DNA of 64,000 nucleotides from Vulcanimicrobiales bacterium (GTDB lineage: Bacteria; Vulcanimicrobiota; Vulcanimicrobiia; Vulcanimicrobiales; Vulcanimicrobiaceae). The notes beneath the pieces are model-generated. The model was not told where the DNA came from. It ran no database searches and saw only the letters and a program-made list of their open reading frames with translations. The DNA is taken from positions 111,404 to 175,403 of the forward strand of contig JBBRLI010000006.1 in assembly GCA_038231455.1 (NCBI GenBank), given 5' to 3'. Every line of letters begins with the position of its first letter. The stretch's first letter is position 1. Below are positions 1-18,629 of this stretch, piece after piece. The translations under genes and the position numbers were made by a program.

Positions 1-474
1 GACACGAGCGAGCGCGCAGAATGGCTCGTCGAGCGGTAACTCGCGCACGGAGACGGCAATCTGCAAAGCGATCTTGGCGAGTCGATCCGACGGTGCAACG
101 GTGATGCGCAGAAGTGCGCTCGATTCCGCCGCGCGCCGACGCGCGAGAACGGTTGCTCGGAGGAGGGAGAGGACGAGAACGGTCGCGATGATGGCGTAAA
201 GCACGCGTCCGGCCTCAGTTTGGAAACATGCCGCATGCACGCCACCGATCAAAGCAGCGACCGCGAGCGCGAGGACGAGCGTTCCGGGAAGAATCGCCGC
301 AATCGATGCGAGCGCCGCTTGCCAAGTCGCGTCGCCGGACATCTTACGTAGCGAACCAAGCGCGAGCCGCAATGCCGCCCACGCGGCAAGCGGAACCACG
401 AGGAGCGCGCAGGCGGACGAGAGCAGCACGCCGCTGCGAAAGCAGTCGGCAAAAAATAAGCCGAAGTCAGGCAC
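1..474 (-). CDS. M56/M48-type membrane metallopeptidase (BlaR1-like), N-terminal part, runs off window start
   Basis: Hand-translated open frame from GTG at 474 (MPDFGLFFADCFRSGVLL...AAILPGTLVLALAVAALIGG...ELPLDEPFCALARV) with several TM segments; overlaps the stop of the BlaI-like gene, the usual BlaI-M56 arrangement. HExxH would lie outside the window. Confidence 0.65.
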   Translation of the reverse strand, partial: MPDFGLFFADCFRSGVLLSSACALLVVPLAAWAALRLALGSLRKMSGDATWQAALASIAAILPGTLVLALAVAALIGGVHAACFQTEAGRVLYAIIATVLVLSLLRATVLARRRAAESSALLRITVAPSDRLAKIALQIAVSVRELPLDEPFCALARV

Positions 475-901
475 GGCGTGCCTCGGCGCGTTTGGCGGCT
501 AAGAGCTTGGCAAATTCTTCGTAGCTCTCATCATCGTTTGCGAGTTCGCCCGCAATATGCGCGAGGAGCGGATTGCGCTGGCTTCTATAGAGAGGGCGAA
601 GCACGTCGCCGATCACCGATGCTTGGAACGCTTCACGCGAAATCGCCGGGATAAACAGGTTCGCTCGCCCGGCCGACTTTTTGTTCAGGTGGAGCTTATT
701 TACGAGATTCTGCATGATCGTCTTGACCGTCGAATAGGCGAGCGTCTTACCCTCACCGGACTTCTCGATTTCGGTCATCACATCGCTGACGGCCATCCAA
801 TCGCCATATGCCCACATGATCTCGATCACGCGAGATTCGAGTGGGCCAAGGGCGCTGGCCGTATCGTCGGCGCCACCGATGCGGATCGTACGCAAACTCA
901 T
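467..901 (-). CDS. BlaI/MecI/CopY family transcriptional repressor
   Basis: LGPLESRVIEIMW...LAYSTVKTIMQNLVNK...GRANLFIPAISREAF matches the BlaI wHTH pattern. Confidence 0.88.
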   Translation of the reverse strand: MSLRTIRIGGADDTASALGPLESRVIEIMWAYGDWMAVSDVMTEIEKSGEGKTLAYSTVKTIMQNLVNKLHLNKKSAGRANLFIPAISREAFQASVIGDVLRPLYRSQRNPLLAHIAGELANDDESYEEFAKLLAAKRAEARRA

Positions 902-975
902 CTGCTAAGGACGCTAGCATATGCCTCGCAGCCGGTCAATCGGATATCATGCAGCGTACGTTCCGCAGTCCTGTA

Positions 976-1018
976 TTGACTTAATTGGATACAAGGCATA
1001 GAATCGAAATATGTCGAT
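976..1018 (+). promoter_or_regulatory. sigma70-type promoter of arsR with overlapping ArsR-type operator; probably leaderless
   Basis: TTGACT(976-981)-N17-TAGAAT(999-1004), ATG 6 nt later at 1011; inverted repeat ATCGA-N6-TCGAT (1003-1018) spans the start codon. Confidence 0.7.
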
Positions 1019-1343
1019 ACAACGTTGTTGCCCGCCGGCCGTCGTCGATGACTCGGATCGCTCGGAGCAGTCCAGCCTTTTTAAGGCGCTCGGAGATCCC
1101 CATCGCCTGGCCATGCTCGCGACGCTAGCGCGGACGGATGACGAGGTCTGCGTTTGCGACTTCACCAGCGCCTTGCCCTTAGAGCAACCGACGATATCAC
1201 ACCACCTCCGATTGCTTCGCGACGCACGCTTGGTTACGTCCGAGCGACGCGGTACATGGGTGTACTATCGCCTGGCAAGCGATGCGTCTGAACGCATTGA
1301 CGCCGCACTACGCTCGGTACTTCCGCAGAAAGTTCTTGCATGA
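1011..1343 (+). CDS. arsR: ArsR/SmtB family arsenic-responsive repressor
   Basis: FKALGDPHRL, EVCVCDF metal-binding box, QPTISHHLRLLRDARLV, ERRGTWVYYRL; heads an ars operon. Confidence 0.92.
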   Translation: MSIQRCCPPAVVDDSDRSEQSSLFKALGDPHRLAMLATLARTDDEVCVCDFTSALPLEQPTISHHLRLLRDARLVTSERRGTWVYYRLASDASERIDAALRSVLPQKVLA

Positions 1344-1741
1344 AGATGCATCTGAACCTCGCGACGCGCGACCTCGAAGGCAGCATCGCATTTTACTCAA
1401 CGCTCTTTGCCGCCAAGCCGTCCAAGCAACTCCCCGATTACGCGCTCTTTATCACCGAGCACCCGGGACTCGAATTGGCGCTCGATCTCGACCTCGGCGC
1501 TCGAATCGGTGTCAGTGAGCATTTCGGTATCGTTGTCGATTCGCCGCACGAAGTCGATGCTCAGATCGAGCGATTGCGGAATGCCGGCTACGCAGTCGAT
1601 ATCGAACGTGGCGAGACGTGCTGCTATGCAAATCAAACGAAAGTTTGGGCGAGTGACCCGGAAGGGCGACGTTGGGAGACCTACTTCGTTCACGAAGAAA
1701 CCGAGGCGCGCGACGACGATCAGACATCATGCTGCACCTAG
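1340..1741 (+). CDS. ArsI/CadI family VOC-fold protein (putative C-As lyase)
   Basis: MHLNL...SIAFYSTLF, EHFGIVV, TCCYANQTKVWASDPEGRRWE with vicinal CC pair; C-terminal SCCT. Confidence 0.85.
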   Translation: MKMHLNLATRDLEGSIAFYSTLFAAKPSKQLPDYALFITEHPGLELALDLDLGARIGVSEHFGIVVDSPHEVDAQIERLRNAGYAVDIERGETCCYANQTKVWASDPEGRRWETYFVHEETEARDDDQTSCCT

Positions 1742-1760
1742 GTCTCGATTTGGAGAAGGT

Positions 1761-2477
1761 GTGAATTATCGCGCAGTCGCCGCCGAATTTTTTGGCTCGG
1801 TCTTCTTGCTCTTGGCCGTCGTCGGGTCGGGAATTATGGCGGAACGGCTTAGCGGCGGAAACGTCGGCGTCGCGCTCCTTGCGAACACCATCGCGACCGG
1901 TGGAGCCCTCATCGCGCTTATTTTAGCTTTCGGACCCGTATCCGGCGCGCACTTCAATCCAGCCGTGACCCTGGCCGATGCGTGGCAACGCGGACTCGCT
2001 TGGTCGATGGTCATGCCGTATTTTATCGCTCAGATCGCTGGCGCAATACTTGGGACGGCGCTTGCGAACACGCTGTTCGGCCTGCCGGTTTTTTTTGCTT
2101 CGCACCACTCGCGCTCGGGCGCGGTCCTGCTCGTTAGTGAGTTCGTCGCGACCTTTGGGCTGCTCGCCGTCATCTGGGGCTGCGTACGCTCGCGCCCATC
2201 GGTAACTCCGTTTGCCGTCGCCGCATATATCGTTGGGGCATACTGGTTCACGCCGTCCACCTCGTTCGCAAATCCCGCTGTGACGATCGCTCGTTCACTC
2301 ACCGATACGTTCGCGGGGATTCGGCCGCAAGATGCCCCGGGTTTTATCATCGTTCAGTTCGCCGGTGCAATCGCGGCGACCGCGCTCTTCGCCTGGCTAG
2401 CCCCGATCTCTTCGGCCACGGCAAAAGCCGTTGTCGTCCCACATTCGAAGGAGAGCCGTGAACTTGTCAGCCGCTAA
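1761..2477 (+). CDS. MIP family aquaglyceroporin (AqpS-like arsenite channel)
   Basis: Two NPA motifs (SGAHFNPAVT, STSFANPAVT), AEFFG, six TM segments; GTG start at 1761 after GGAGAAGG. Confidence 0.9.
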   Translation: MNYRAVAAEFFGSVFLLLAVVGSGIMAERLSGGNVGVALLANTIATGGALIALILAFGPVSGAHFNPAVTLADAWQRGLAWSMVMPYFIAQIAGAILGTALANTLFGLPVFFASHHSRSGAVLLVSEFVATFGLLAVIWGCVRSRPSVTPFAVAAYIVGAYWFTPSTSFANPAVTIARSLTDTFAGIRPQDAPGFIIVQFAGAIAATALFAWLAPISSATAKAVVVPHSKESRELVSR

Positions 2478-2877
2478 CCAGACGCCATTCGTGTTGTTCG
2501 TTTGTCGGCACAACACCGGCCGTTCGCAGATGGCGGAAGCGTATCTGCGGCACTTCGCGGGCGATAAAATCGAAGTCGCCTCAGCGGGAACGATCGCCGC
2601 CGCGGTCCCCGATCCGCGCGTTGTCGCGATCATGGCGGAGGATGGTATCGATATCAGTGCTGCGCGGCCAAAACTGCTCGACGCGGAGAAAGCCAAGATC
2701 GCCGATCGCATTATAACGATGGGTTGCGATGTTGAAGGCGTGCCTCGGATCGATGCAGATTGGGGTCTTGCCGATCCCAAAGGTCAGCCGCCTGAGGCCG
2801 TTCGCGAGATTCGGAACACGATCAAAGAAAAAGCCCGCGAGTTAGCGGCCGCCCTACTTGGAACGAACAAAGCTTAG
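2458..2877 (+). CDS. arsC: LMW-PTP-fold arsenate reductase
   Basis: VLFVCRHNTGRSQMAEA P-loop (CX5R), SAGT, DWGLADPKGQ; GTG start at 2458 after GAAGGAG. Confidence 0.85.
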   Translation: MNLSAANQTPFVLFVCRHNTGRSQMAEAYLRHFAGDKIEVASAGTIAAAVPDPRVVAIMAEDGIDISAARPKLLDAEKAKIADRIITMGCDVEGVPRIDADWGLADPKGQPPEAVREIRNTIKEKARELAAALLGTNKA

Positions 2878-2927
2878 ACTCGGTGGGGTCTGCCCCGACG
2901 CCGACTTGCAAGGACCGTGCATCACCT

Positions 2928-5900
2928 TTAAACGGTGATCGCCATTCCGCGATAAATACGCGAACGATAGCGACTGTCGTCGGCGGCGGGTAGTGGGCCG
3001 GATTCAAGGACGAGCGCGCGCGCGAAACGGTCGAGTTCTTCTTGTTGCTCGCTCGTATTACGCGGTTCTTCGCTTTGCACACGGCGCGTGACGTTGATCT
3101 GATTGACCGGCACTTCATGCACGAGACGTTCGTTCTCGACGGCAATCGTTGCGGTAAGGGCGTGCAGTGTGGTCTTGATGAAATTCGCCAGCGCAAATTC
3201 CACCGGGTTGCCGCCAAATGGAACGTCGGGGGAGACGAAGACCAGTCGCACGTCTTCGAGCAGTGACACCGTTCGTGCGACGCGAAAGTGATTGGTGATA
3301 TTCTCCTCGATCATCGCTTCGAATCCGGGTCCATCGAGAGCGTGATCGCCTTCGAAAAGCGCGTTCGGTAAGAGACCGAGCGGCATGGAGACGACAGCCG
3401 CCGGGTTCGGATATTCGCTCAGTGCGCGATCGAGCCCGGTCTCGAGGTCCGCGCCGATGACGATGTCGACGATGCGTTCCGCGATCGTCGATCCGACGCG
3501 TTGACGGACGTGTTTTACTGCTTGTTGCGTGCACGTGATTAGCACCACGCGATCGACGCCGCACTCTTCGACATACGCACGGGCCGCGCGCACCATGTGT
3601 TCGATCGGATGCTCGCCGACGATCCAGACGTTTCGCCCGCGCAGTTGCGCCACGCGCTCGTCCTTCGAGCGACCGAAGAGTTCTCGCTCGGTAATCGAGC
3701 GTTCTTGGCGCAGACCGCCCGAGGGTTGAAACGTTTCGCCCGAGACGGCGCGATCGGCAAGGAAGTACACCGTCGCAAGCGCGACTTCGAGTTCGCTCGG
3801 CATATGCTGCAAATGCAGCATTTTTAGCACCCCCGACCGCACTTTTTCCGCTTCGCGTTCGACCTCGCGCGGTGCAAAGAATGGTTCGGCGGGACGTTGT
3901 GCGATGCCGCATTTGACGTCATCTGAGAGACGATGGCTGCGCTGCAAACGCTCGCAAAGCTTTCGTGAGATATCTTCGTCCATCAGCGCCGTAGCGAATG
4001 ATGAACCTTCGCTTGCGGCCGCCCCCTTCACGATTGCATCGCAGAGATTGCGCAGCGTCGCGGGCGTTGAAGGATCAGCGATGATCTCCGCAATGTCGTT
4101 CCGCATTGCCGCCTGCAGGAACAGATGCGTTTCGCCGCCCGTGCGCACGTGCGCGATCGCCGCGGCGTAGATTGCATTCAGTCTCTTTGCGGCTAAAATC
4201 AGCTTGCCGCGGCGTTCGAAGAGACCCGGTCCGCCGCCCGTGCCGGCGAGACGGTCGCCCGCAACCGGTCCTGGGGCGATTGCGTTGATTTGAATTTCGG
4301 GACCGACGAATTGCGCGAGCGTCTCGACGATTGCGCGCTGCCCGGCTTTGGATACGGCATAGTCGCTTCGATTGGGATAGGCGACGGCAACGTATTTCTC
4401 TCCGCCGAAGTACGAGCTAACGTTAAGAATGTAGCCGCTGCCGCGCTTTTTCATCTCTGGAACGACGCGCGCCATCAGCGCAAAGTTCGAGATCAGGTTG
4501 GCTTTGAGCGTTCGGCGCCAGCTCTCGAGCGGCATATCGACGACCATTTGTTCGGCCCCCGCTATCCCGGCATTGTTAATGAGATAGTCGATCGAACCGA
4601 ACCGGGAAAGACCACGATCGATCGCAAGGGCGAGCGTCGCGTCGTCTGCGACATCGACGCCGTCGAGTGTTTCGATTCGCGCCGCGGCGTCGTCGTAGCC
4701 GATGGCCGTGAGTTCGCTAACGATATTCTTGCGCATCGTTGCGAGTTGATCCGCACGACGCGCAGCGATGATCACCCGCGCGCCCGCGATTGCCAGCAGT
4801 CGAGCGATCTGGCCGCCAATACCGGCGGAACCTCCCGTAATGAAGGCGACTTTGCCGCGATGGAGGCCGATGAGGCTCTCGCTTGCGCCAAACGTAGCGC
4901 GGGTCGCGCCCGTGCCTTCGCCAAGCGAATCGGGTAAGTACAGATTCACGGGCTTCGTGCGCCGGTTGGTGTAAAGAAGTTTCGCTGTCCACGCCGCTGC
5001 GAACCGCAGCCCTTCGTCTTCGGTATTCGTCCAGCGCACGATTTGATTTGACCAGTCGGCAAAGGGCCGTTTACCAGCCGACGCGTCGAGTTCCGATTCG
5101 TCACGCCAAACGCGCACGAGCTGTTCTACCGCGGCGCGCCAGATATCGCCATAGACGTTGCCGCGACCGTCGTCTCCGTTCCCGAGAAAAACGACGCGCG
5201 GGTTAGCGCCGATGCGGGCGGTACTCCAATACCGTCCGAGTTCGCGCGCAATCACGATCGCGCCCACGATCTCGCCGTCCAAGAACGCGTCGACGTCCTC
5301 ATCGCTGGCGTCGGCCAGCGGCTTGGTGAAATGCTTGGGACCGAACGCGGGCAAAATGACGGCGCCGTGCACGGCACCCGATGTGCGCCGCAACATCGTT
5401 GCGACCGCGTCGGGATCGCGCCGGTCGAGTGCGAGCGTGCGAATGTTGCGATCGAGTTCCAAGTCTCCGAGCTTCGAAGATGCGCTCGTGAGCGCCGCGT
5501 CGTTTGGGACGCTAAGCAAGACCGTAGCTCCGCATTCCGCGTGCGCTCGTGCAACGGCGATGCCGGCTTCGACATCTTCGCCTGAGACGACAAGCACGGT
5601 ACGTCCCGACGCATCGACGATGCGTAGACCGGGACGTGCGGTAAACGTGCTGCGACTTTCCTGTCGCACAAGCATGCCGTGCGTGATCTCGAAGTTGTGT
5701 CCGCTGATCGCGCCCGAATCGTCACTGCCGAGAAAAACCGTCGTGGATGCCACATCGCCAATCGTCGGAAACGGTGTGGCAGGAATGGCGTCCGTGCCGC
5801 CGTTCCGTGAGAGCGTCATCATATCGGTGATCTCGTTTGCCGTGGTGCCGGAAGGCGCGCTGCGGAGGGCGTCCATCGAAGCAAATACGCTATGGATGCG

Positions 5901-6563
5901 CTCGCTCTCGATCGGGCCGGGAAAGACGGTATTCACGCGAATGCCGCGCTCGCCAAGTTCGTATGCCAGGCGCCGCGACCACGCATTGAGTGCAGCCTTT
6001 GGTACGACGTACCCCGCGCGTCCGAAATAGGCCGTGCGCGAAAAAATTGTGGAAATATTAATGATCGAGGCACCCGGCGCCAAATGTGGAGCTGCGGCGC
6101 GTACGACATTCCATGCCACGCCGAAAAGGTTTCGAGCGGCATCGCCGACCGTCTCGGTGTCGCTTGCACCACCCGCTCGCAGACGCTCGAGATCCGCGTT
6201 CGATATCGGCACGTTTTCGAGTTGTTGGCGTGGTCCGGCGGACCCGGCATTATTCACCAGGACGTCAATTCGGCCGAAGTGCTCGAGGATGCGTGCAATA
6301 CCCGCACGCGCTTGCACGGGATCGCCTGCGTCAAATGGGCTCACGAAGATGCGATCGGCATCAACGTCGGTCTCGGCGATCAGCTTGATTCGGGCGTTGG
6401 CAAGTTTGTCGCCGTCACGCCCGACCATGGCAATCCGTGCTCCCTCAGCAAGGTAACGGCGCGATATTTCGCCGCCAATATTGCCCGCGGCTCCCGTGAT
6501 GACCGCGACCTTGCCCGCAAGTCGCAAAACGGGGAGAGACCGGACCGAGTCGACTGAAGCCAT
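2928..6563 (-). CDS. mcr: Bifunctional malonyl-CoA reductase (malonyl-CoA to 3-hydroxypropionate), Chloroflexus Mcr-type tandem SDR
   Basis: ~1210 aa. N-terminal SDR RLAGKVAVITGAAGNIG...STIFSRTAYFGRAGYVVPK; second SDR ESLIGLHRGKVAFITGGSAGIGGQI...NVSSYFGGEK...YPNRSDYAVSKAGQRA; C-terminus FALANFIKTTLHA...EEPR...RIYRGMAITV. Collinear with Chloroflexus Mcr as I recall it. Start ATG 6563 or GTG 6581. Confidence 0.93.
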   Translation of the reverse strand: MASVDSVRSLPVLRLAGKVAVITGAAGNIGGEISRRYLAEGARIAMVGRDGDKLANARIKLIAETDVDADRIFVSPFDAGDPVQARAGIARILEHFGRIDVLVNNAGSAGPRQQLENVPISNADLERLRAGGASDTETVGDAARNLFGVAWNVVRAAAPHLAPGASIINISTIFSRTAYFGRAGYVVPKAALNAWSRRLAYELGERGIRVNTVFPGPIESERIHSVFASMDALRSAPSGTTANEITDMMTLSRNGGTDAIPATPFPTIGDVASTTVFLGSDDSGAISGHNFEITHGMLVRQESRSTFTARPGLRIVDASGRTVLVVSGEDVEAGIAVARAHAECGATVLLSVPNDAALTSASSKLGDLELDRNIRTLALDRRDPDAVATMLRRTSGAVHGAVILPAFGPKHFTKPLADASDEDVDAFLDGEIVGAIVIARELGRYWSTARIGANPRVVFLGNGDDGRGNVYGDIWRAAVEQLVRVWRDESELDASAGKRPFADWSNQIVRWTNTEDEGLRFAAAWTAKLLYTNRRTKPVNLYLPDSLGEGTGATRATFGASESLIGLHRGKVAFITGGSAGIGGQIARLLAIAGARVIIAARRADQLATMRKNIVSELTAIGYDDAAARIETLDGVDVADDATLALAIDRGLSRFGSIDYLINNAGIAGAEQMVVDMPLESWRRTLKANLISNFALMARVVPEMKKRGSGYILNVSSYFGGEKYVAVAYPNRSDYAVSKAGQRAIVETLAQFVGPEIQINAIAPGPVAGDRLAGTGGGPGLFERRGKLILAAKRLNAIYAAAIAHVRTGGETHLFLQAAMRNDIAEIIADPSTPATLRNLCDAIVKGAAASEGSSFATALMDEDISRKLCERLQRSHRLSDDVKCGIAQRPAEPFFAPREVEREAEKVRSGVLKMLHLQHMPSELEVALATVYFLADRAVSGETFQPSGGLRQERSITERELFGRSKDERVAQLRGRNVWIVGEHPIEHMVRAARAYVEECGVDRVVLITCTQQAVKHVRQRVGSTIAERIVDIVIGADLETGLDRALSEYPNPAAVVSMPLGLLPNALFEGDHALDGPGFEAMIEENITNHFRVARTVSLLEDVRLVFVSPDVPFGGNPVEFALANFIKTTLHALTATIAVENERLVHEVPVNQINVTRRVQSEEPRNTSEQQEELDRFARALVLESGPLPAADDSRYRSRIYRGMAITV

Positions 6564-6616
6564 CCTGAACGTGATCCCCACAAGAGAAGAAGCCGTTGGT
6601 CGCCAGAAGCCCCCTT

Positions 6617-6657
6617 ATAATACCCAACCATTGATGAATAGCAACCCATCCAATGGT
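6617..6657 (-). promoter_or_regulatory. Putative mcr promoter overlapped by an inverted repeat
   Basis: Minus strand TTGCTA(6644-6639)-N16-TATTAT(6622-6617); IR ACCATTGATG(6627-6636)...CATCCAATGGT(6647-6657) in an AT-rich patch. Confidence 0.5.
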
Positions 6658-6776
6658 AGAATCTTTGGCGGGGTCTGCCTGAACCGGAAAAAATCTTCCG
6701 GGGGAGGACGCCTGTCGGTAGCCGGGCGAGTCGGGCTGCCGGATACCGAGAACCGAATAGACATCAACGGCGCCCG

Positions 6777-9299
6777 CTACGGGAGATGTAGACGGATCGC
6801 GTGCCAGACGAGGCCCGGCTCGTACCGGTGGGTCACGACGCCCGTCTCGTGATCCATGGCGTAGAGTCGTAGCCAGCGATTATCGACCAGGTTGCGGACC
6901 GAATCGTGCTTCGCGATAACGGCATCCATCGCGGCCGTTGGAGCAGCGATGATCACATTGAGACGTTGCGGCTCGTGCATGAACCGCTCCCCATCGTGCA
7001 CCGATTGCCAGGGAAGCCCAACCCGAAGATCGCCAGCGTTCCCTTCGAGCACCCCAAGACACCCGGTGACGTTGTGTAAGACCTTATTGCCGGCGCCGAA
7101 GAGTCGATTGTTCACGACCGAACCGTAATATTGAAGATTGATCCAGCTTGCAACGACCATCGGCGCCACCATGATCAGTTCGAGGACGCCGCGGGTCGTG
7201 TCGAGATCGAAGCGGTAATCGTGCAAAAAGGCGCGGCCTTCGAAATCGATGCCGCGCGTGAACTCACGCGGCGCGGCGATGAATGCCGCGTTGTTTGCCA
7301 GTGCCCATTCGGGCCGCACTTGCGCCCAATCGCGGCTACGCACCAGCACGCGACGGTCCGTGTTCTCATCGACCGGGATACCCATGAGCGGCGCGCGTTC
7401 GCGCCGCGTGATCGCGCTCGAGGTTCGAAGCCACCCGTGAACGTCGGTAATTAGCGGGCGATGCGAGCTTGGCAACCGATCCTCATCGTAGATCGTAATT
7501 TCATCGGTCGTTGTGTCGTGCAGGCAGCCTAGGAACCATGTATCATCTGGAATATCGATTCCGCGGCTACGCAGGCCGACGCGAACACCCGGATCGTTGC
7601 AGATGTCCGCTGCCACGCGCGCGTTGGCCTCGCCGGTATGCCCGCCACATGCTCCGCAATCGAGTCCCGATGCGTGCGGGTTGTTGACGGTCGTGCTACC
7701 GTGACCGACCATCATGACCAGCGGCGCGAAGTTTCCTTTCATTGACATCGCGCCGAGCACGGCTTCCGCCATGTCGATCTTTTTTTCATCGGTAAATCCG
7801 GTCGGGCTTCCGCCATCGTTACGCGCCTCGATTTCGGGACCGAGCTTTTGAATCGTCGTCGCGTCAAGACCGTCCGTATTGGGGTCGGTGGTCGGTCGCG
7901 TGAGTGCAAGGCTATCGGTCAGAATTTTACCCGCGAACAAGATGCCGCCGGTTTTGACGAAAATGAACGATGAAACAGCCGAGAGTTTAAACGACTTCCA
8001 GGCCTTATACGCGCGTCGTCGCAAGAGCCGCAGACCGAGGATCTCGGCGTTATCATCGCGCGAGACGCTTTGAACGACTTGTCGTACCGTAAATGCGGGC
8101 GTGAGCAGGACGGGACACTGCGCACCTCCGCGCAGGTGTCCGATCGGCACGTACTCGATCGGGTAGCCAAAGAAACCCGCAAATCCAATCGTTTGCACAC
8201 CCGGCGCTACGCTCTCTAAGGCCCGCCGGTACACTTCGGAACGAACGTCGATGCAGAAAGCCGCTTGCAACTGCGGGCGCGCAGCAACTGCAACGACGGC
8301 GGGGGATCCGAGCTTCGCGAGAAGCCGCCGCTCGTACGCCGCCTCGTATGCTTCTTGCGCAAGAATATCGATGCTCAGTTCGGGATCATCCCCGAGTCGC
8401 TCGTCCAGCGGAATTGAGGCAGCGTCGTGCATCGCGCGCTCCCAAGCAGAACGGAATTCCGTATCGGAGCGTTGCATGAAAAGCGCGTATCCCCAAACCA
8501 CGCGGATCGCGAGCAACTGAACCAGTGCATCGTTGGTGCCGCCGTAGAGTTCGCTCTCCCAGACGAGATACCGCGCGTACGATGCCCAACCCGCGATGTC
8601 GAGGAGCGTTTGATGCAAGTACTCGACGAGTGCACGCGGTGGGACGCCGAGCTTCTCGACGACTTCCGCGATAGCTGCGACGGGATCAGCCGGCATGCTT
8701 GCCACGATCCGGCGGAAGCCGGCGATGCCCATGACTTCGGGATTGCGATCGTACTGCATTGCTGCGCGCCACGCGGCAAACGGTCGTAGTTCGCGCTCGG
8801 GTAATTGCCAGACCGTCTGTCCTTCATCAAAATACGCCGCGCTGAATCGTGAAATCTCATCGATCATGAACGCGGTGCCCGAGACCTGGCGATTGCCCTC
8901 GGCGAGCGCGTCGATGATCTCCGCGACACTAGCGACGTGCGCGGGGTGCTTTCTGCGTGCACCTTCCTCCAGCGCGAGCGACTCTTTGAATTCCGCTACC
9001 GTCTTGGGTGCCTGCCATTCGTGCGGCGCAGCGAAGAGCGCCGTCGCGATATCGGCGTCTTCGATTCGTCCGCTCGCGAGCGCTTCGCGGTAGAACGAGC
9101 GCGGCATCAGCATATCGGCACGCGCCACCCGGTACATCGTGGCGCACGTCGCGTGAAAGCTTTGGTGCGTGAATCCAAGAAATGGATTGACGGCGACAAA
9201 GTGTTTGAGCGGCCAGAGCGGCGCAATGCGATTGCAGGCTTGTGCGATCACCGATTCGAGATCGATTGTCTTGAGCGTTTCGGGAACGTTGAGGGTCAT
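6777..9299 (-). CDS. dabA: DabA (DUF2309/UPF0753) beta-carbonic-anhydrase-like subunit of the DAB inorganic carbon pump
   Basis: IAPLWPLKHFVAVNPF; Zn-ligand motifs FCIDVRSE, GHGS, LDCGACGG; DWAQVRPEWALANN, GRAFLHDY, WINLQYY. Confidence 0.93.
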   Translation of the reverse strand: MTLNVPETLKTIDLESVIAQACNRIAPLWPLKHFVAVNPFLGFTHQSFHATCATMYRVARADMLMPRSFYREALASGRIEDADIATALFAAPHEWQAPKTVAEFKESLALEEGARRKHPAHVASVAEIIDALAEGNRQVSGTAFMIDEISRFSAAYFDEGQTVWQLPERELRPFAAWRAAMQYDRNPEVMGIAGFRRIVASMPADPVAAIAEVVEKLGVPPRALVEYLHQTLLDIAGWASYARYLVWESELYGGTNDALVQLLAIRVVWGYALFMQRSDTEFRSAWERAMHDAASIPLDERLGDDPELSIDILAQEAYEAAYERRLLAKLGSPAVVAVAARPQLQAAFCIDVRSEVYRRALESVAPGVQTIGFAGFFGYPIEYVPIGHLRGGAQCPVLLTPAFTVRQVVQSVSRDDNAEILGLRLLRRRAYKAWKSFKLSAVSSFIFVKTGGILFAGKILTDSLALTRPTTDPNTDGLDATTIQKLGPEIEARNDGGSPTGFTDEKKIDMAEAVLGAMSMKGNFAPLVMMVGHGSTTVNNPHASGLDCGACGGHTGEANARVAADICNDPGVRVGLRSRGIDIPDDTWFLGCLHDTTTDEITIYDEDRLPSSHRPLITDVHGWLRTSSAITRRERAPLMGIPVDENTDRRVLVRSRDWAQVRPEWALANNAAFIAAPREFTRGIDFEGRAFLHDYRFDLDTTRGVLELIMVAPMVVASWINLQYYGSVVNNRLFGAGNKVLHNVTGCLGVLEGNAGDLRVGLPWQSVHDGERFMHEPQRLNVIIAAPTAAMDAVIAKHDSVRNLVDNRWLRLYAMDHETGVVTHRYEPGLVWHAIRLHLP

Positions 9300-9302
9300 T
9301 TG

Positions 9303-10913
9303 CTACAACGGCCTCGCGGTGGATGAGAGCGGTTTTGGCGCGGGCGCCGGCCAGAGGCGCACGACGATACGGTTCGCTAGCGTGTTGACATACAGGCCGT
9401 TTGCAACGTGGGCATACATCGCGCGCCATCGGGGCGAAGTAAAGCGGCCCGGCACCCAGTTTTGCAAAAACACGATAACGGCAAAGGCCACGATGACCGC
9501 TCCGACCAGGGCGATGTCGAGCGGGCCGCGGGCAGGCGCCGCCGGCACCGCGCCGGCAAGCAGAAATTCCATCGTGTACTGGAGGCCAAAATACGCCGCT
9601 GCGATCGCGATGGCCGTCAGCACGGTCCGGCCGACAACGTAGAAGTTGGGCCGGTTTTCAATGCTGCGCGCGAGCAGGTGGACGATGCTGAGCAGCAGCG
9701 TTGCGCCGAGCGCGAACACGCCCGGCTTTTCGGCGATGTCCGCGCCGAAGAGGCGCCCGACGATCGCGACCGCAGCAATGACCATGATGATGACGAAAAT
9801 CAAACGCCCCGCGTTCGGTTTGCCTTCGGGCTTTGGCGTGTACGAAGCGCGGGAGATGTCGATCACGCTACCCGAGGATAAGAACGCGTGTGCTTTGTAG
9901 CATGAGTGCGCGACGATGTGCAGGAGCGCTGCGGGAAACGCTCCGATTCCGCACTCGAAGAGCATAAATCCCATCTGCGCCACCGTCGAGTACGCGAGTG
10001 TCACCTTGATGGAACTCTGGGTTAGCATCACCACCGAGCCAAAGAGCGCGGTGAAGCCGCCCACGATGACCAGCGTGTCGAGCGCAGGCAGCGAGAGCAC
10101 GATTAAACCGGCAAAGCGCAAGACAAGAAAACCACCGGCATTGATGATGCCGGCGTGCAGCAGCGAAGAAACGGGTGTCGGCGTTTCCATCACTTCGATC
10201 AGCCAACCGTGTGTCGGGAATTGGGCCGAGGTGAGCAGTGCCGCTAGCACCAGCAACATCGCGGCAACCGAGATGCCGCCGGGCACCGTTGCACCGTGCA
10301 ACGCGGCGACGCCGGCGAATACCACACCGTAATCGAGGCTCCCGAAATTGAAGTAGATGAGCACGGCGGCTGCGACGATGCACGTCTCAGCAAGCCGGCT
10401 GACAATAAACTTCTTGCGTCCGGCGAGCACGGCTGCGGGACGGCCGGGATAGAACAAGAGTAATTGCTGCAGGCAGAGCGCCGTCGCGATCCAGGCGAAG
10501 GCGAGCAGCGCTACGTTTCCGGCAATAATTGCGATCAGAATCGAGGCGAGCGTGAGGCAGAGGAATCGCGTGAAACGTACATGCGCCGGATCGCCGTCGA
10601 GGTAGTTCTTGCTGTACAGCGTGACGATGACGCCGACGAAAGCAACGAGGCAATACATCGTGGCGCTAAGCGAGTCGAGGTAGAGTGCCAAGCCGACCCC
10701 ATTCGCACCGAGTGTCTCGGTGTGGAGCGGCCCCTTCGCAACAACCGCGACCGCCGCCGAAACGGCGGTAAGTAGCGCGACGCCGGCGGCCGCAATCGCG
10801 AGCCGATTATACCGTACGGCGGCGCGCAATTTCCGTTCTCCGGGTAGCAGTCCGACCAAGAGCAAACCAATTGGCCCCGCAGCGGCCAGCCACAAGCTAT
10901 TCACCCAAGTCAA
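9303..10913 (-). CDS. dabB: DabB, NuoL/MrpA-like proton-conducting membrane subunit of the DAB pump
   Basis: SAQFPTHGWLIEVMETPTPVSSLLHAGIINAGG, LAYSTVAQMGFM, HIVAHSCYKAHAFL; 3 bp upstream of dabA. Confidence 0.92.
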   Translation of the reverse strand: MTWVNSLWLAAAGPIGLLLVGLLPGERKLRAAVRYNRLAIAAAGVALLTAVSAAVAVVAKGPLHTETLGANGVGLALYLDSLSATMYCLVAFVGVIVTLYSKNYLDGDPAHVRFTRFLCLTLASILIAIIAGNVALLAFAWIATALCLQQLLLFYPGRPAAVLAGRKKFIVSRLAETCIVAAAVLIYFNFGSLDYGVVFAGVAALHGATVPGGISVAAMLLVLAALLTSAQFPTHGWLIEVMETPTPVSSLLHAGIINAGGFLVLRFAGLIVLSLPALDTLVIVGGFTALFGSVVMLTQSSIKVTLAYSTVAQMGFMLFECGIGAFPAALLHIVAHSCYKAHAFLSSGSVIDISRASYTPKPEGKPNAGRLIFVIIMVIAAVAIVGRLFGADIAEKPGVFALGATLLLSIVHLLARSIENRPNFYVVGRTVLTAIAIAAAYFGLQYTMEFLLAGAVPAAPARGPLDIALVGAVIVAFAVIVFLQNWVPGRFTSPRWRAMYAHVANGLYVNTLANRIVVRLWPAPAPKPLSSTARPL

Positions 10914-11032
10914 CGTACGCCACGCCTTTCGTTTAAAACACTCGTGATGGAGTTAATCAAAGCGAGGCCGCCTAAAAGGGAGGCGACGATCACTCGAACG
11001 AGCCCTGCAGGGACTGGACACACGAATCGCAT

Positions 11033-11064
11033 AACATGAACTCTATTGCATGTTTTGATACCAT
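11033..11064. promoter_or_regulatory. Palindromic operator in the dabB/regulator divergent region, plus -10 box of the regulator
   Basis: AACATG(11033-38)-N10-CATGTT(11049-54); TACCAT(11059-64) lies 6 nt before GTG 11071. Confidence 0.55.
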
Positions 11065-11070
11065 AGTCGC

Positions 11071-11379
11071 GTGAGTGTCGTCAAGAAGCGCGCCGTCGGA
11101 TCCGAGGCGCGAACCGGCTGGACGTTTTTGACCAATCACGCGCATGTCTTGATCGCGCTTACGCGCGACCCGTTAGCGCGTGTTCGAGACCTCGCGCTCT
11201 CGGTTGGCATCACCGAGCGAGCGATTTTGCAAATCCTTTCCGACCTCGAAGCGGGCGGCGTGATCGAGCGCCTGCGCGAGGGCCGCCGGAACACCTACCG
11301 GATCAATAAAGAGGTCCGTTTGCGACACCCGCTCGAGTCCAACCACCGAATCGATGAGCTTCTGACGCTCGCGCGATAA
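11071..11379 (+). CDS. Small winged-HTH (MarR/ArsR-like) regulator, WTFLTNHAHVL type
   Basis: WTFLTNHAHVL...RVRDLALSVGITERAILQILSDLEAGGVI...REGRRNTY...LRHPLE; divergent from dabB. Confidence 0.85.
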   Translation: MSVVKKRAVGSEARTGWTFLTNHAHVLIALTRDPLARVRDLALSVGITERAILQILSDLEAGGVIERLREGRRNTYRINKEVRLRHPLESNHRIDELLTLAR

Positions 11380-11566
11380 GCCGCATCGCGAATGGCGAGG
11401 CAAATCCAGAACCGGTTCGCTCACTGATGTAAATCGCGGCTTCGCCATATTCTGATTCAGGCGCAGCACGTCGGTGTCGGCAGCTTCCTGAGTTCATTTG
11501 TCGCGTCGCTCGATGGCGGCTCCGCGGTGGACACAACACTTGCCCTGGGGAGGCCCGAGGGCGTAT

Positions 11567-11601
11567 AGTGGGTGAAAGTGGTGTCTAGTGGGAGCTAGTG
11601 G
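11567..11601 (+). promoter_or_regulatory. MraZ binding site: four AGTGG direct repeats with 10-bp period
   Basis: AGTGG at 11567, 11577, 11587 and 11597, directly upstream of mraZ. Confidence 0.85.
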
Positions 11602-11610
11602 GGATATTTT

Positions 11611-12057
11611 TTGGCCGCCGATCGACCGCTCTTTACCGGGTCAGTCGAACACAGCCTTGACGACAAGGGTCGCCTCGTCGTGCCCGCCCGCTTCCGCGAA
11701 CGCCTCGGCGCCGGCTTCTTCTTAACGATCGCCGAGCCCGACCCGTGCCTCGCCCTCTACCCGGCCCCGACGTGGGCCGAGTTCTGCGCCAAGCTCGAAG
11801 CCGCGCCGACTAAGGACGCGCGCTACCGGAGCTTCGTCCGGCACGTCTTCGCGAATACGGAAGAACTCTCGTGCGATAACCAGGGACGCCTCGTCATCCC
11901 CGGTCATCTGCGTGCCCACGCGAAAATCGAAAAAGACGTTGTCTCCGTTGGTTCGCTCACGCGTATCGAAGTCTGGGGTCGCGAACGCTATAAAGAGCAA
12001 GCCAAGGCTGCGGCGACGGAGTTGTTCGACTTCGCCACCGAGCTTGGGCTGTATTAG
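11611..12057 (+). CDS. mraZ: Division/cell wall cluster repressor MraZ
   Basis: HSLDDKGRLVVPARFR and CDNQGRLVIP (two DxxGR repeats); first gene of dcw. Confidence 0.95.
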   Translation: MAADRPLFTGSVEHSLDDKGRLVVPARFRERLGAGFFLTIAEPDPCLALYPAPTWAEFCAKLEAAPTKDARYRSFVRHVFANTEELSCDNQGRLVIPGHLRAHAKIEKDVVSVGSLTRIEVWGRERYKEQAKAAATELFDFATELGLY

Positions 12058-12060
12058 TGC

Positions 12061-12942
12061 GTGGGGCACGTCTCCGTATTGCCCGCCGAGTCAATCGCGG
12101 CGCTTGCTCTCGTCCCGGACGGCACGTATGTCGATGCGACGTTCGGAGCGGGCGGTCATACGGCGTTGATGCTCGCGGCACTCTCGCCCGCGGGGCGGAT
12201 CGTTGCCTTCGATGCGGATCCCGACGCGCGCGAGCGCGATCTGCGGGACCCGCGCGTGACGCTCGTGCATGCAAACTTTCGCGCGTTGCGCTCGGAATTG
12301 GAAGCGCGTGGGATCTCACAGATCGATGGGATTCTCTACGACTTGGGGACGAGTTCGATGCAACTCGATAGCGCCGATCGCGGCTTCTCGTTTCGCGAAG
12401 ACGCGCCGCTCGATATGCGCATGGATCCGACGCAAGGCGAATCGGTCGCCGAACTTCTTGCCGAGCGCGAAGAAAAAGAAATCGCCGACATCATCTTTGA
12501 ATTCGGCGACGAACGCGCAGCGCGCCGCATCGCGCGCGCGATCGTCCAGAAGCGTACGATTGGCCGCGTGCCGACGACGACGGGAGAACTCGCTTCGCTC
12601 GTCTCGGGCGTCGTGCATCAAGCGGGCAAGCGCGAACGCACGCATCCCGCAACGCGCACCTTTCAGGCGCTCCGTATTGCGGTCAACGACGAACTCGGCG
12701 CGTTACGCGACTCGCTCGATGCAGCGATGGGCGTCGTGAAACCCGATGGTCGGATCGCCGTCATCAGCTTTCACTCCCTCGAAGACCGCATCGTGAAGAC
12801 GACCTTCCGTGACGATCCGCGCGTCGCGCGGGTGACGCGCAAACCGATCGTGCCCACAGGTGAAGAAACCGCCGCCAATCCCCGTTCGCGTAGCGCGAAG
12901 CTCCGCGTTGCCGCCGTTCTTGCTCAGGAGTCCGACGCATGA
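12061..12942 (+). CDS. rsmH: 16S rRNA m4C1402 methyltransferase
   Basis: HVSVL, YVDATFGAGGH, DLGTSSMQLD, HPATRTFQALRIAVNDEL, NPRSRSAKLR. Confidence 0.96.
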   Translation: MGHVSVLPAESIAALALVPDGTYVDATFGAGGHTALMLAALSPAGRIVAFDADPDARERDLRDPRVTLVHANFRALRSELEARGISQIDGILYDLGTSSMQLDSADRGFSFREDAPLDMRMDPTQGESVAELLAEREEKEIADIIFEFGDERAARRIARAIVQKRTIGRVPTTTGELASLVSGVVHQAGKRERTHPATRTFQALRIAVNDELGALRDSLDAAMGVVKPDGRIAVISFHSLEDRIVKTTFRDDPRVARVTRKPIVPTGEETAANPRSRSAKLRVAAVLAQESDA

Positions 12943-13373
12943 TTGCCCCGCAGCGAGTTCCCCAATACGAGATCCCGCGTTCGCGCGAACGCGCAAAACA
13001 GGCTACCCGCCGACGGTCGACGCGCGCCAAAGCGCGTGCGTACGTCGGTCTTGGGCGTATCGCGGTTGCCGTCGGCCTCATCGTCGTTCCGCTCATGGTG
13101 TATGTGATGCTCACGGCGAACCTCACGGGCATGCACTATGCGGTCGCGCGCGCGGAGACGCAGCGTACGACGCTCACGGATGAAACGCAGCGCCTCGACG
13201 ATAAAATTGCGCAGCTCGAATCGCGCGAACGCCTCTCGGCCGTCGCCGCAAAACTCCATATGCACGATCCGCGCGAGTACGCGGTCGTCGCCTTACCGAA
13301 TCCCGCCGCGAAGCCGAAACCCAAAGGCATTGCGTTTCTCGGGAGCATGGGCGACTGGTTCAGTCGGCAGTAG
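12939..13373 (+). CDS. ftsL: Cell division protein FtsL-like
   Basis: Basic N-terminus, single TM, coiled coil ending LESRERLSAVAAKLHM; position between rsmH and PBP. Confidence 0.75.
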   Translation: MIAPQRVPQYEIPRSRERAKQATRRRSTRAKARAYVGLGRIAVAVGLIVVPLMVYVMLTANLTGMHYAVARAETQRTTLTDETQRLDDKIAQLESRERLSAVAAKLHMHDPREYAVVALPNPAAKPKPKGIAFLGSMGDWFSRQ

Positions 13374-15125
13374 GTGGCCGCACGTTCGTTTTCGCGCGTC
13401 GCTCCCGGGCGCGCGAAGATCACGTTCTACGCGATCGTCGGGATCGCGCTTTTTCTTTCTTGGCGGCTCTATGACGTCCAGATCCGTCAAGGTCCGCATT
13501 TAGCGGCGATCGCCCAAAGCCAGCGTTCCGATACGGTCGAACTCTTTGCCAAGCGCGGCACCATCACCGATCGCGAGGGCAACGTGCTCGTGCGCTCGAT
13601 GCCCTCCGAGAGCGTCTCCGCCGTCCCGACGAATATCGTCGATCCGCTCAAGACCGCAACGGAACTCGCGCCGATCCTCGGCATGAAAGCGCACGATATC
13701 GAGCTTGCGCTGCGCGATCGTTCGCAGTTCCGCTGGCTAGCGCGAAAAATCTCGCACGACGTCGCGCTTCGCGTCGCCGCGCTCAATGTTACCGGTATCG
13801 CGATCGTTCGGGAAGAGACGGGCACGCGCTTTACGCCTGCCGGTCATCTCGCATCGACCGTGCTTGGCTTTGTCGGCGTCGATGAATCCGGGCTCGAGGG
13901 GCTCGAGTCGGCATTCGATACGTATCTGAGAGGCACGACCGGAAAGATGAAAATCGAGGCCGATCAGTTCGGCCGTGCGATTCCATTTGCCGAGACGCGG
14001 ATCATCGAAAAAGCGCACCCCGGTCGCCACATCCAACTCGCGCTCGATTCGTACTTGCAGTTCGCAACGGAACGCGCGCTGCGCGACCGCGTGCACGAAT
14101 CGCACGCGCGCAGCGGCACGGCGATCGTCATGGATCCGAACACGGGCGAGATTCTCGCGCTTGCAAACGCGCCCGATTACGAGCCCGCGCACTTCTACCG
14201 CTTTTCGGCCGACGCCAGGCGCGACCGCGCAGTGATGGATGCCTACGAGCCGGGTTCGACGTTTAAATTGATAACGGCGGCCGCCGCGCTCGAGTCGCAC
14301 CATATCGGACCCAATGCCATGTTTCCAGCGCTCGATTCGCTTGAAGTCGGCGGCCGGGTCATTCACAATGCCGAGGACGGCCTGATGGCGGGCGGCGGCG
14401 GAAGCGAATCGCTCGAGCAGATCATCGCGCTCTCGCACAATGTCGGCGCGGCCGAGATCGGCATCGCGACAGGTCCGCGCGATCTTTATAAAACGATCCG
14501 CGCGTTTGGCTTCGGCGACCCCACCAACATCGAACTTCCCGGTGAAAATCCGGGCATCGTGCCGCCGCCCGATCAGTGGAGCGGCAGCTCCACCGCGACG
14601 ATTTCGTTTGGCCATGGGATCTCGACGACGCCGATCGCGCTCGTGCGCGCGTATGCCGCAATCGCCAACGGCGGTTTGCTGCTGCGCCCGCGTATCGTAC
14701 ACGCACTCATCGGTGAAGACGGCGCCCCGTTCTTCACCTACCCAACGGAAATCGAACACCGCGCGATCTCTGTGCAGACCGCGGCGACCTTGCGCCGCTA
14801 TCTCCGGGCCGTCGTCATGCGCGGCACCGGGAAAGACAACGCGCAAATTCCCGGGTATACGACGGCTGGGAAAACCGGCACCGCGCAAGTGGTCGAAAAC
14901 GGACGCTACGAACCGGGCGAATACATCGCCTCGTTTATCGGGTATGTCCCGGCGGAACGTCCGAAGTTCGTGATTTTTGTGAAGATCGAGCGGCCGCGCG
15001 GCGTGTACTACGGCGGCACGGTCGCAGCACCGGTGTTCGCGCAACTCGCGCGCATTGCAATGCTGCATGCGGGCGTCTTGCCGACGGCGGCGGCAAAATC
15101 GCGGCTCGCGGCGAAAGCGCCGTAA
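13374..15125 (+). CDS. ftsI: Class B penicillin-binding protein (FtsI/PBP3)
   Basis: KRGTITDREG, YEPGSTFK (SxxK), SHN (SxN), GKTGTAQ (KTG); no PASTA domains. Confidence 0.92.
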   Translation: MAARSFSRVAPGRAKITFYAIVGIALFLSWRLYDVQIRQGPHLAAIAQSQRSDTVELFAKRGTITDREGNVLVRSMPSESVSAVPTNIVDPLKTATELAPILGMKAHDIELALRDRSQFRWLARKISHDVALRVAALNVTGIAIVREETGTRFTPAGHLASTVLGFVGVDESGLEGLESAFDTYLRGTTGKMKIEADQFGRAIPFAETRIIEKAHPGRHIQLALDSYLQFATERALRDRVHESHARSGTAIVMDPNTGEILALANAPDYEPAHFYRFSADARRDRAVMDAYEPGSTFKLITAAAALESHHIGPNAMFPALDSLEVGGRVIHNAEDGLMAGGGGSESLEQIIALSHNVGAAEIGIATGPRDLYKTIRAFGFGDPTNIELPGENPGIVPPPDQWSGSSTATISFGHGISTTPIALVRAYAAIANGGLLLRPRIVHALIGEDGAPFFTYPTEIEHRAISVQTAATLRRYLRAVVMRGTGKDNAQIPGYTTAGKTGTAQVVENGRYEPGEYIASFIGYVPAERPKFVIFVKIERPRGVYYGGTVAAPVFAQLARIAMLHAGVLPTAAAKSRLAAKAP

Positions 15126-17940: not shown

Positions 17941-18629
17941 TGCCGCTGGCCGTTCACGAACCGCCGCTACCCGATGGCCTCGTCGCGATCCCCGTGCGCA
18001 CGCGCCTTGTCGGCGCCGGCGACGATTTGCTCGCACTCGTGCGCGAAGCGCTGCGCGGCATCGCCAAACCCGGCGACGTCGTGGCGATCGCGGAAACCGC
18101 TGTTGCGATCGCCCAGCGCCGCTTCGTGCCTGCCGAATTCGTGCGACCCTCGATGCTTGCATATCAGCTCTCGCGCCGAGCCGGGGCGCTTGCGACCGTG
18201 AGCCAACCGGAATCGCTGCAGATTGTGATCGATCAAGTCGGCACGTGGCGCGTGGTGTACGCCGCCGCCGCGCACGTCGTGGGTCGACTGCTCGGCAAGC
18301 ACGGGATGTTTTATGAAATTCTGGGCGAGGCGATTGCGGCAATCGACGGCTACACCGGCACGCTTCCGCCGTACGAACGCGCGATTGTCTTCGGTCCGCT
18401 CGAACCCGATCGCGTCTGCGCGGAGTTTGCCGCAGCGCTCGACATGGGCGTTGCGATCGTTGATGCCAACGATCTGCGTAAGGCCAAAGCCTTAGGCGTC
18501 TCGCCGAACCTCGTGCGCACGCACGTGGAACTGGCACTGCTCGGCAACCCGCACGGCAATTCCGACGAGCAAACGCCGCTCGTCGTCTTGACGTGGCGCG
18601 GCGCGGGAAAGAATCCGCTCTGCGCATGA
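17937..18629 (+). CDS. Coenzyme F420-0:gamma-glutamyl ligase (CofE)-like amide ligase of unknown substrate
   Basis: IPVRTRLV.AGDDL, GDVVAIAETAVAIAQRR, AIDGYTGTLPPYERAIVFGP, GVAIVDANDL, GNPHGNSDEQTP; ATGA overlaps with both murF and mraY. Confidence 0.75.
   Translation: MMPLAVHEPPLPDGLVAIPVRTRLVGAGDDLLALVREALRGIAKPGDVVAIAETAVAIAQRRFVPAEFVRPSMLAYQLSRRAGALATVSQPESLQIVIDQVGTWRVVYAAAAHVVGRLLGKHGMFYEILGEAIAAIDGYTGTLPPYERAIVFGPLEPDRVCAEFAAALDMGVAIVDANDLRKAKALGVSPNLVRTHVELALLGNPHGNSDEQTPLVVLTWRGAGKNPLCA

Follow-up and report, generated by a model that had tools for sequence, protein, structure and literature searches.

Introduction

The closest described relatives of the locus considered here are the DAB inorganic-carbon pumps (DabAB, DAC or MpsAB), which hydrate CO2 vectorially and thereby build up a cytosolic HCO3- pool, and the bifunctional malonyl-CoA reductases (Mcr) of 3-hydroxypropionate (3-HP) metabolism. 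A supply of HCO3- by DAB/DAC to organisms of the 3-HP bi-cycle has already been proposed in print (excerpts of PMC10880623), as is the occurrence of Mcr and propionyl-CoA synthase (Pcs) outside Chloroflexota (excerpts of PMC9802188 and of bioRxiv 10.64898/2026.09.02.748891), where the excerpts of the latter two sources leave open the role of both enzymes in photoheterotrophic bacteria. Here we analyse a stretch of 64,000 nucleotides (the window) from a Vulcanimicrobiales bacterium (assembly GCA_038231455.1, contig JBBRLI010000006.1, positions 111,404 to 175,403 of the forward strand), in which the pump genes dabB and dabA stand next to mcr. An initial annotation of this DNA had proposed that the three genes form a carbon-concentrating module for a 3-HP route, and had believed such a linkage to be undescribed; indeed, we found no description of a physical dab–mcr linkage in the literature, leaving aside supplements that could bear on the point (PMC10880623 Fig. 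2 and tables).

The account that we favour, with moderate confidence, is that two independent units have become neighbours, namely a DAB cassette and a solo mcr with a promoter of its own; the region, next to the dcw cluster, would be a rearranged one. The adjacency is probably a recent juxtaposition. The evidence comes from the fate of the two units in relatives of the host, from the gene content of the host genome, and from Mcr loci in other phyla.

Organization of the locus

Three genes follow one another on the minus strand: dabB (9303..10913, 536 aa), which encodes the NuoL/Mrp-type membrane subunit of DAB; dabA (6777..9299, 840 aa), which encodes its cytoplasmic subunit, resembling a beta-carbonic anhydrase (beta-CA); and a full-length bifunctional mcr (2928..6581 as an open frame of 1217 aa with a GTG start, or 2928..6563 from the likely ATG). 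The gap between dabB and dabA is 3 bp, and the spacer between dabA and mcr measures 213 bp to ATG 6563 (6564..6776, minus strand) or 195 bp to GTG 6581. A winged helix-turn-helix (wHTH) regulator gene (11071..11379, plus strand, 102 aa) diverges at the head, and a conserved operator-like inverted repeat, ACATGAA-N6-TGCATGT (11034..11053), lies inside the 157-bp spacer between dabB and the wHTH gene. This order, with the divergent gene and the palindrome, is that of the initial annotation and is confirmed by the open reading frames (ORFs) and by another assembly made from this sample; the three gene identities given there are likewise correct, as judged from PDB and profile matches of Mcr, DabA and DabB.

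The second assembly, a 19,190-nt Logan contig, covers window positions 1-14000 with 0 differences and a flat depth of ~15. It was built from the same reads and is thus not an independent check; because it spans the junctions without differences and at even depth, an assembly chimera is not obvious. The GC content is even as well (0.59-0.64).

Cassette and reductase in the host family

The linkage of dab to mcr, for which conservation in relatives had been suggested as a check, is not conserved in the family of the host. The congener G001 carries the wHTH–dabB–dabA cassette at 82% nucleotide identity and has no mcr. Nucleotide similarity to this genome is limited to window positions 6804-10827 and 11020-11378, exactly the three cassette genes; it resumes at 11539, in the dcw cluster, which is located on another G001 contig, and there is no match to mcr. 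The G001 cassette sits between glmS/SpoIIE and bioB/bioF. In G257, a member of another genus, the same cassette is on contig C3 and mcr is on contig C4, amid argS, dprA, a panE-like gene and a glutathione S-transferase gene. The third genome with the reductase, G074, has a solo mcr beside kup on a 7-kb contig. The latter two mcr loci thus have unrelated contexts. Within the family, therefore, the adjacency is unique to the index genome, one of the three outcomes that the initial annotation had regarded as jointly refuting its proposal; outside the family it is not unique, since dabBA also abuts a pcs–mcr pair in three Caulobacterales genomes (see below).

We note that in G001 (L081, on contig C1, 16945-19989) the cassette regulator abuts genes of biotin synthesis, whose products are a BioB-like protein of the radical-SAM/BATS type and an aminotransferase resembling BioF. 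This neighbourhood, seen in one genome only, is suggestive, since biotin carboxylases use HCO3-.

Both units are rare among the 348 genomes of the family. Mcr occurs in three of them, the index genome included, and was not found among the 40 nearest relatives (0/40). All three carry pufLM, so that Mcr is present in 3/30 pufLM genomes vs 0/318 others, a phototroph-only distribution that fits a light- or NADPH-linked role. DabA is found in 14/348 genomes, more often in those with pufLM (9/30 vs 5/318 others) and in those with RuBisCO (9/50 vs 5/298 others, the 50 including the unpublished genomes G260 and G009). Among the phototrophs, DabA accompanies Mcr in two of three genomes and is present in 7/27 genomes without Mcr, a difference that is not significant and is drawn from relatives that are not independent.

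The family shows a patchy distribution of pufLM, RuBisCO also in some non-phototrophs, and a Form I RuBisCO that is related to, yet distinct from, the second, carboxysomal copy of some members. The pattern resembles that of the phototrophic WPS-2/Eremiobacterota in the excerpts of PMC6664022, a resemblance and nothing further. Four genomes (G005, G062, G068 and G191) have two to three pufL/pufM pairs each, some with identical scores, which suggests duplicated photosynthesis segments.

In two sibling genera (G061 and G318), orthologous dabB–dabA genes lie a few kb downstream of cbbL-csoS2-csoSCA on the same strand, with DabA 68-69% identical to that of the window. These alpha-carboxysome loci map to L130 (G061, contig C11), 12466-17668, and L129 (G318, contig C60), 12029-17347. 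In G061, csoS2 begins only 110 bp after cbbL, which leaves no room for cbbS between them. Within a single family, the same dabBA cassette is seen to move between carboxysome loci and positions where it stands free.

The malonyl-CoA reductase

The Mcr of the window consists of four tandem domains of the short-chain dehydrogenase/reductase (SDR) type and has the length of the solved full-length enzymes. Residues 18-1217 align with residues 4-1229 of the Roseiflexus chain (PDB 8hi4; 1184 bits, E = 0), and the match to the Chloroflexus enzyme is end-to-end (PDB 8hjw; 1134 bits, E = 0). The residues required for catalysis or substrate binding by the Roseiflexus enzyme (RfxMCR) are defined in its structure paper (excerpts of PMC10470521). 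In the HMMER alignment, the SDR1 residues Thr165-Tyr178-Lys182 and Tyr172/Arg175 (RfxMCR numbering) are all identical in the window protein, as are 8/8 further residues, namely Ser731-Tyr749-Lys753 of SDR3, the Tyr743/Arg746 pair, and the contacts of CoA and malonate semialdehyde (Arg785, Leu795 and Arg799). In total 13/13 checked residues, a set without Arg1164, are kept. The solo Mcr is thus predicted, from its sequence, to be a catalytically intact bifunctional enzyme.

Of the two possible starts, ATG 6563 agrees better with the N-termini of the solved enzymes than does GTG 6581. A database copy of the protein (P0121) has 1166 aa, 51 residues short of the open frame (window 6428-6581); the longer form from ATG 6563 is favoured because the alignment to the solved enzymes supports it. 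Homologues carry the source name malonyl-CoA reductase, and a 90%-identical Mcr (P0122, on a contig of 4.6 kb) is present in another assembly. The G257 protein is 66% identical, and identity outside the host-family clade reaches ~58% at most. In a quick maximum-likelihood tree the host-family sequences form one clade, with an SH-aLRT support of 100. This single clade speaks for a long-standing solo gene rather than a passenger of the dab cassette, and indicates that Mcr is an old solo gene kept sporadically by phototrophs of the family.

The DAB pump and its probable regulator

DabA matches PF10070 over profile positions 1-747 of 747 (E 2.7e-267) and the solved DabA2 (PDB 9rd0) with an E of 1e-185. 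Four residues, C349 and D351 in the CIDVR motif, H533 and C548, are invariant in 10/10 aligned DabA sequences. The ligands of the beta-CA-like zinc site of DabA, in work by Desmarais et al. of 2019, are reportedly Cys, Asp, His and Cys, and on this identity we take C349, D351, H533 and C548 to be the zinc site of the window protein. DabB contains Proton_antipo_M and Proton_antipo_N and scores 383.5 bits against NF006029 (cut-off 380). DabA proteins of 87-91% identity occur in other assemblies, two of them (P0002 and P0003) at 90-91%. None of the best 120 Mcr matches is on a contig of 185,886 nt, the length of the longest contig with P0003, an indirect hint that this close relative probably has no mcr beside its dabA.

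The index genome carries a second locus on contig C16, in the order wHTH–dabB2–dabA2–PII-like protein. This locus (C16:59900-71300; L082, ~7900-19300) is directly downstream of gcl-hyi-glxR-like genes, which resemble those for glyoxylate carboligase, hydroxypyruvate isomerase and tartronate-semialdehyde reductase, i.e., the set of the glycerate pathway and photorespiratory salvage.

The 102-aa protein encoded at the head of the window cassette gives only weak HTH_24/ArsR-type matches, and its orthologues adjoin dabB in G001 (75% amino-acid identity), G257 (63%) and G319 (55%). The paralogue upstream of dabB2 is 62% identical to it. The palindrome is conserved in the alignment of G000 (the index genome), G001 and G257, and in G001 its arms form a perfect 7-bp repeat. 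The wHTH protein probably binds this palindrome in the divergent spacer, and wHTH–dabB–dabA would then probably constitute a self-contained, autoregulated cassette. The initial annotation had assigned a dedicated regulator to the whole cluster; the neighbourhoods of the orthologues and of the paralogue tie it to the DAB pump, and the part of that claim concerning mcr is not borne out by them.

For mcr itself, the spacer contains a sigma-70-like match, TTGCTA-16-TATTAT at 6644..6617. The region holds three promoter-like sites vs 3.0 expected from shuffled sequences, and this match is not significant by itself. A terminator scan of the spacer found no convincing terminator after dabA. The mcr gene is probably driven by its own promoter within the 213-bp spacer.

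Carbon metabolism of the host genome

The index genome is a metagenome-assembled genome of 3.71 Mb in 106 contigs, 93.7% complete. The presence of pufL and pufM identifies the host as a type-II reaction-centre phototroph. A Form I RuBisCO is encoded by cbbL (C27:741-2252) and cbbS (C27:420-716), with a divergent LysR regulator gene (cbbR), and genes for phosphoribulokinase (PRK) and a glpX fructose-bisphosphatase are located near cbbLS. The search for rbcL that the initial annotation had called for thus returns a Calvin-cycle client for the pump. Carboxyltransferases of the acetyl-/propionyl-CoA carboxylase type give six matches (best 643 bits), and biotin-carboxylase-like ORFs are present.

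The search for pcs and for other 3-HP-consuming enzymes, recommended at the same time, identified none in the index genome. A fused Pcs (~1830-1870 aa) was not found in this genome, nor in G001, G257 or G074, and the window itself is without a fused pcs, as the initial annotation had implied, since its longest ORF has 1217 aa. The index genome contains only separate homologues of the Pcs synthetase and hydratase (27-39% identity). It has three acyl-CoA synthetase paralogues (C3:187588-189651, C1:306620-308521 and C11:79955-81925). A homologue of the Pcs reductase domain was not found there, the best match being 27% over 183 aa (E 3e-5). Class III CoA-transferases (Mct/SmtAB type; PF02515) have 0 matches in the index genome and in G001. 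The HpcH/HpaI family (malyl-CoA lyase type) has one match (C28:33273-33842), and the Mcr-less G001 shares it. Because pcs and class III CoA-transferases are missing, the 3-HP bi-cycle is not encoded in the index genome; what the genome encodes is Calvin-cycle potential.

Carboxysome genes were searched for in the index genome with sibling-genus CsoS2 and CsoSCA proteins (tblastn), which found neither, and with the bacterial microcompartment (BMC) shell family PF00936, which gave 0 matches. For beta-CA there is one weak match only.

Mcr loci in other phyla

We compared the locus with 101 other Mcr loci, which represent Gemmatimonadota, Gamma- and Betaproteobacteria, Caulobacterales and relatives of Chlorobiales, together with metagenome contigs and both other family members, with some duplicates and no Chloroflexota; flanks of at least 5 kb were available on one side in 88 and on both sides in 52. 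A pcs-like gene is present within the fetched flank of 65 loci, and dabA within that of three, all from Caulobacterales phototroph genomes (G364, G365 and G525). In these three, dabB–dabA is convergent to mcr and lies 27-106 bp past the mcr stop, and mcr is part of a pcs–mcr pair. The convergent orientation excludes co-transcription of dab and mcr there. The Mcr proteins of G364 and G365 are 93% identical; that of G525 is 55% identical to theirs, and 79-86% identical to those of seven relatives without dab at the mcr locus. Both pufLM genes are present in G364 and G365. RuBisCO was not found in the three genomes, nor in two dab-less relatives. In the Caulobacterales family of the dab-linked loci, Mcr occurs in 11/201 sampled genomes, always with pcs upstream.

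A rough chance expectation is ~0.2 adjacencies among the 101 loci, against three seen, a figure that is assumed rather than measured (a 20-kb window, a ~3.5-Mb genome, and DabA in no more than one genome in three). The Caulobacterales recurrence is the best evidence for a general connection between DAB and 3-HP metabolism.

In two loci from Rhodocyclaceae and Burkholderiales metagenome-assembled genomes (L033, 13752-19187, and L034, 7552-12987), an ORF of 1812 aa follows directly after mcr. It is biotin carboxylase/pyruvate-carboxylase-like and not pcs-like, and may represent a fused carboxylase linked to mcr.

Flanking genes

To the left, mcr meets, tail to tail, a plus-strand ars-type operon (1011-2877) for ArsR, a glyoxalase-fold protein, a MIP channel and a low-molecular-weight phosphatase/ArsC. 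The operon ends 50 bp from the mcr stop, and a BlaI/Penicillinase_R-type repressor gene is located at 467-901 on the minus strand. To the right of the wHTH gene starts the dcw cluster, with mraZ, rsmH, ftsI, murE, murF and mraY; between murF and mraY lies an ORF of 230 aa (17937-18629), one domain of which resembles F420-0:gamma-glutamyl ligase.

Discussion

If the cassette and the reductase are independent neighbours, the pump would most likely supply HCO3- to the whole cell, serving the Calvin cycle via carbonic anhydrase (CA) as well as acetyl-/propionyl-CoA carboxylase and other biotin carboxylases. Mcr would gain only indirectly, through acetyl-CoA carboxylase. The reductase is expected to convert malonyl-CoA to 3-HP with NADPH, and the solo enzyme would most likely be a light-driven sink for NADPH and acetyl-CoA or a short 3-HP branch; in the light it would probably drain acetyl-CoA, HCO3- and NADPH into 3-HP. 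Five observations weigh against this account. With a shared strand and no convincing terminator, read-through from dabA into mcr is possible. As carboxysome genes were not detected and the beta-CA match is single and weak, a benefit of the pump to RuBisCO is not evident. RuBisCO was not found in G257, which has both DabA and Mcr. Since it was not found in the three dab-linked Caulobacterales genomes either, the pump there cannot serve RuBisCO. Finally, two of the three Mcr-bearing family genomes carry DabA, vs 14/348 overall.

The co-directional order, the lack of a clear terminator and the Caulobacterales recurrence lend some weight to a genuine module, in which dabB–dabA–mcr would be co-expressed under the wHTH protein, the HCO3- would feed acetyl-/propionyl-CoA carboxylase, and Mcr would pull malonyl-CoA towards 3-HP for carboxysome-free assimilation or as a redox sink. 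We regard this as unlikely, though it deserves serious attention. The common strand, the 213-bp gap and the missing terminator would permit it, whereas the promoter-like element ahead of mcr does not favour it. Carboxyltransferases of the required type are encoded in the index genome, but no pcs or other 3-HP-consuming enzyme was identified there. DabA and Mcr co-occur in G257, but they are unlinked in that genome, and neither the congener nor the other Mcr-bearing family members keep the linkage. The independent placement of dabBA beside pcs–mcr in three genomes in which RuBisCO was not found, at a frequency above the assumed expectation, is the strongest argument for such a module; the genes there are convergent, however, and cannot be co-transcribed. 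According to excerpts of PMC10880623, two finished genomes of 3-HP bi-cycle organisms carry DAC and SbtA and no CA, which accords with the idea, whereas the cassette orthologues of the sibling genera are linked to carboxysomes. The interpretation of the initial annotation is partly supported overall. Its module is weakly supported for the index genome, which lacks pcs, has RuBisCO, does not share the synteny with its relatives and has dabBA orthologues in carboxysome loci, and it fares better in the Caulobacterales.

It is also conceivable, at a decidedly low probability, that Mcr does not take part in CO2 assimilation at all, and makes or consumes malonate semialdehyde or 3-HP for another end, be it a precursor of beta-alanine and CoA, the use of external 3-HP, or a storage or overflow product, its placement beside dab being irrelevant. 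In each of the three family genomes that have it, the reductase is solo and lacks pcs; class III CoA-transferases and a Pcs reductase-domain homologue were not found, and a PanE/ApbA-family gene lies ~2 kb from mcr in G257. Against this, the residues for the forward two-step reduction are all conserved, the phototroph-only distribution (3/30 vs 0/318) fits a role linked to light or NADPH, and none of the alternative roles has specific evidence. Least probable by far is an artefact of assembly or binning, which would be invited by the 106 contigs of the metagenome-assembled genome and by the mosaic character of window 1-11500 relative to the congener; the contig of the second assembler, with its 0 differences and its depth of ~15, the even GC content, and the closely related Mcr (90%) and DabA (87-91%) proteins in other assemblies all argue against it. 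Two units brought together beside the dcw cluster thus remain our preferred explanation of the index locus.

More speculatively, anoxygenic phototrophs from unrelated phyla may have recruited DAB recurrently beside Mcr, whether Pcs is present or not. Such a pump would be a carboxysome-free and RuBisCO-independent source of HCO3-, by which photoheterotrophs would fix bicarbonate and dispose of NADPH via a partial 3-HP route. We put this forward tentatively and consider it rather doubtful. The supply line would run from CO2 to HCO3- (DAB), then to acetyl-/propionyl-CoA carboxylase, and on to Mcr and Pcs; the Caulobacterales loci would be clearer instances of it than the index locus. A looser connection, from DAB through a biotin carboxylase to Mcr, may exist. 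If the link is functional, the clients of DAB would extend beyond RuBisCO and the housekeeping carboxylases, and Mcr/Pcs-bearing bacteria regarded as 'photoheterotrophic' would have a mechanism for light-driven bicarbonate assimilation. Even without a functional link, the locus documents a family of DAB-specific wHTH regulators with a conserved putative operator, as well as a lineage of phototrophs in which Calvin-cycle genes occur together with two DAB loci and a solo Mcr.

Comparison with known systems

The alpha-carboxysome CO2-concentrating mechanism is represented in the index genome by cbbL and cbbS, whereas CsoS2, CsoSCA and BMC shell proteins were not found. With the Chloroflexota 3-HP bi-cycle the genome shares Mcr and genes of the acetyl-/propionyl-CoA carboxylase type; however, neither Pcs nor a class III CoA-transferase was detected in it, and its sole HpcH/HpaI match is common to the Mcr-less congener. 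The pcs–mcr pair of aerobic anoxygenic phototrophs, described as a 'partial 3-HP' pair in Gemmatimonadota, Gamma-/Betaproteobacteria and Caulobacterales, involves the same type of Mcr in type-II phototrophs. Unlike these, the index genome has no detected pcs and does have RuBisCO and PRK, whereas RuBisCO was not found in the five Caulobacterales genomes tested.

At the level of the single enzyme, the window Mcr agrees with those of Chloroflexus and Roseiflexus (8hjw, 8hi4) and of Porphyrobacter dokdonensis (6k8s) in length, four-SDR architecture and catalytic residues. It differs from the known bifunctional enzymes in standing without pcs, which flanks 65/101 of the other Mcr loci. The pump, in turn, conforms to the DAB systems such as Halothiobacillus DabA2 (9rd0) in its near-abutting DabB–DabA pair, its full-length PF10070 domain and its shared Cys, Asp, His and Cys residues, and its sibling-genus orthologues in alpha-carboxysome loci are like those of classical DAB. 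From classical DAB the index locus departs in three respects: the genome has no detected carboxysome genes, the cassette possesses a small wHTH gene and a palindrome of its own instead of a LysR regulator, and its neighbour is mcr.

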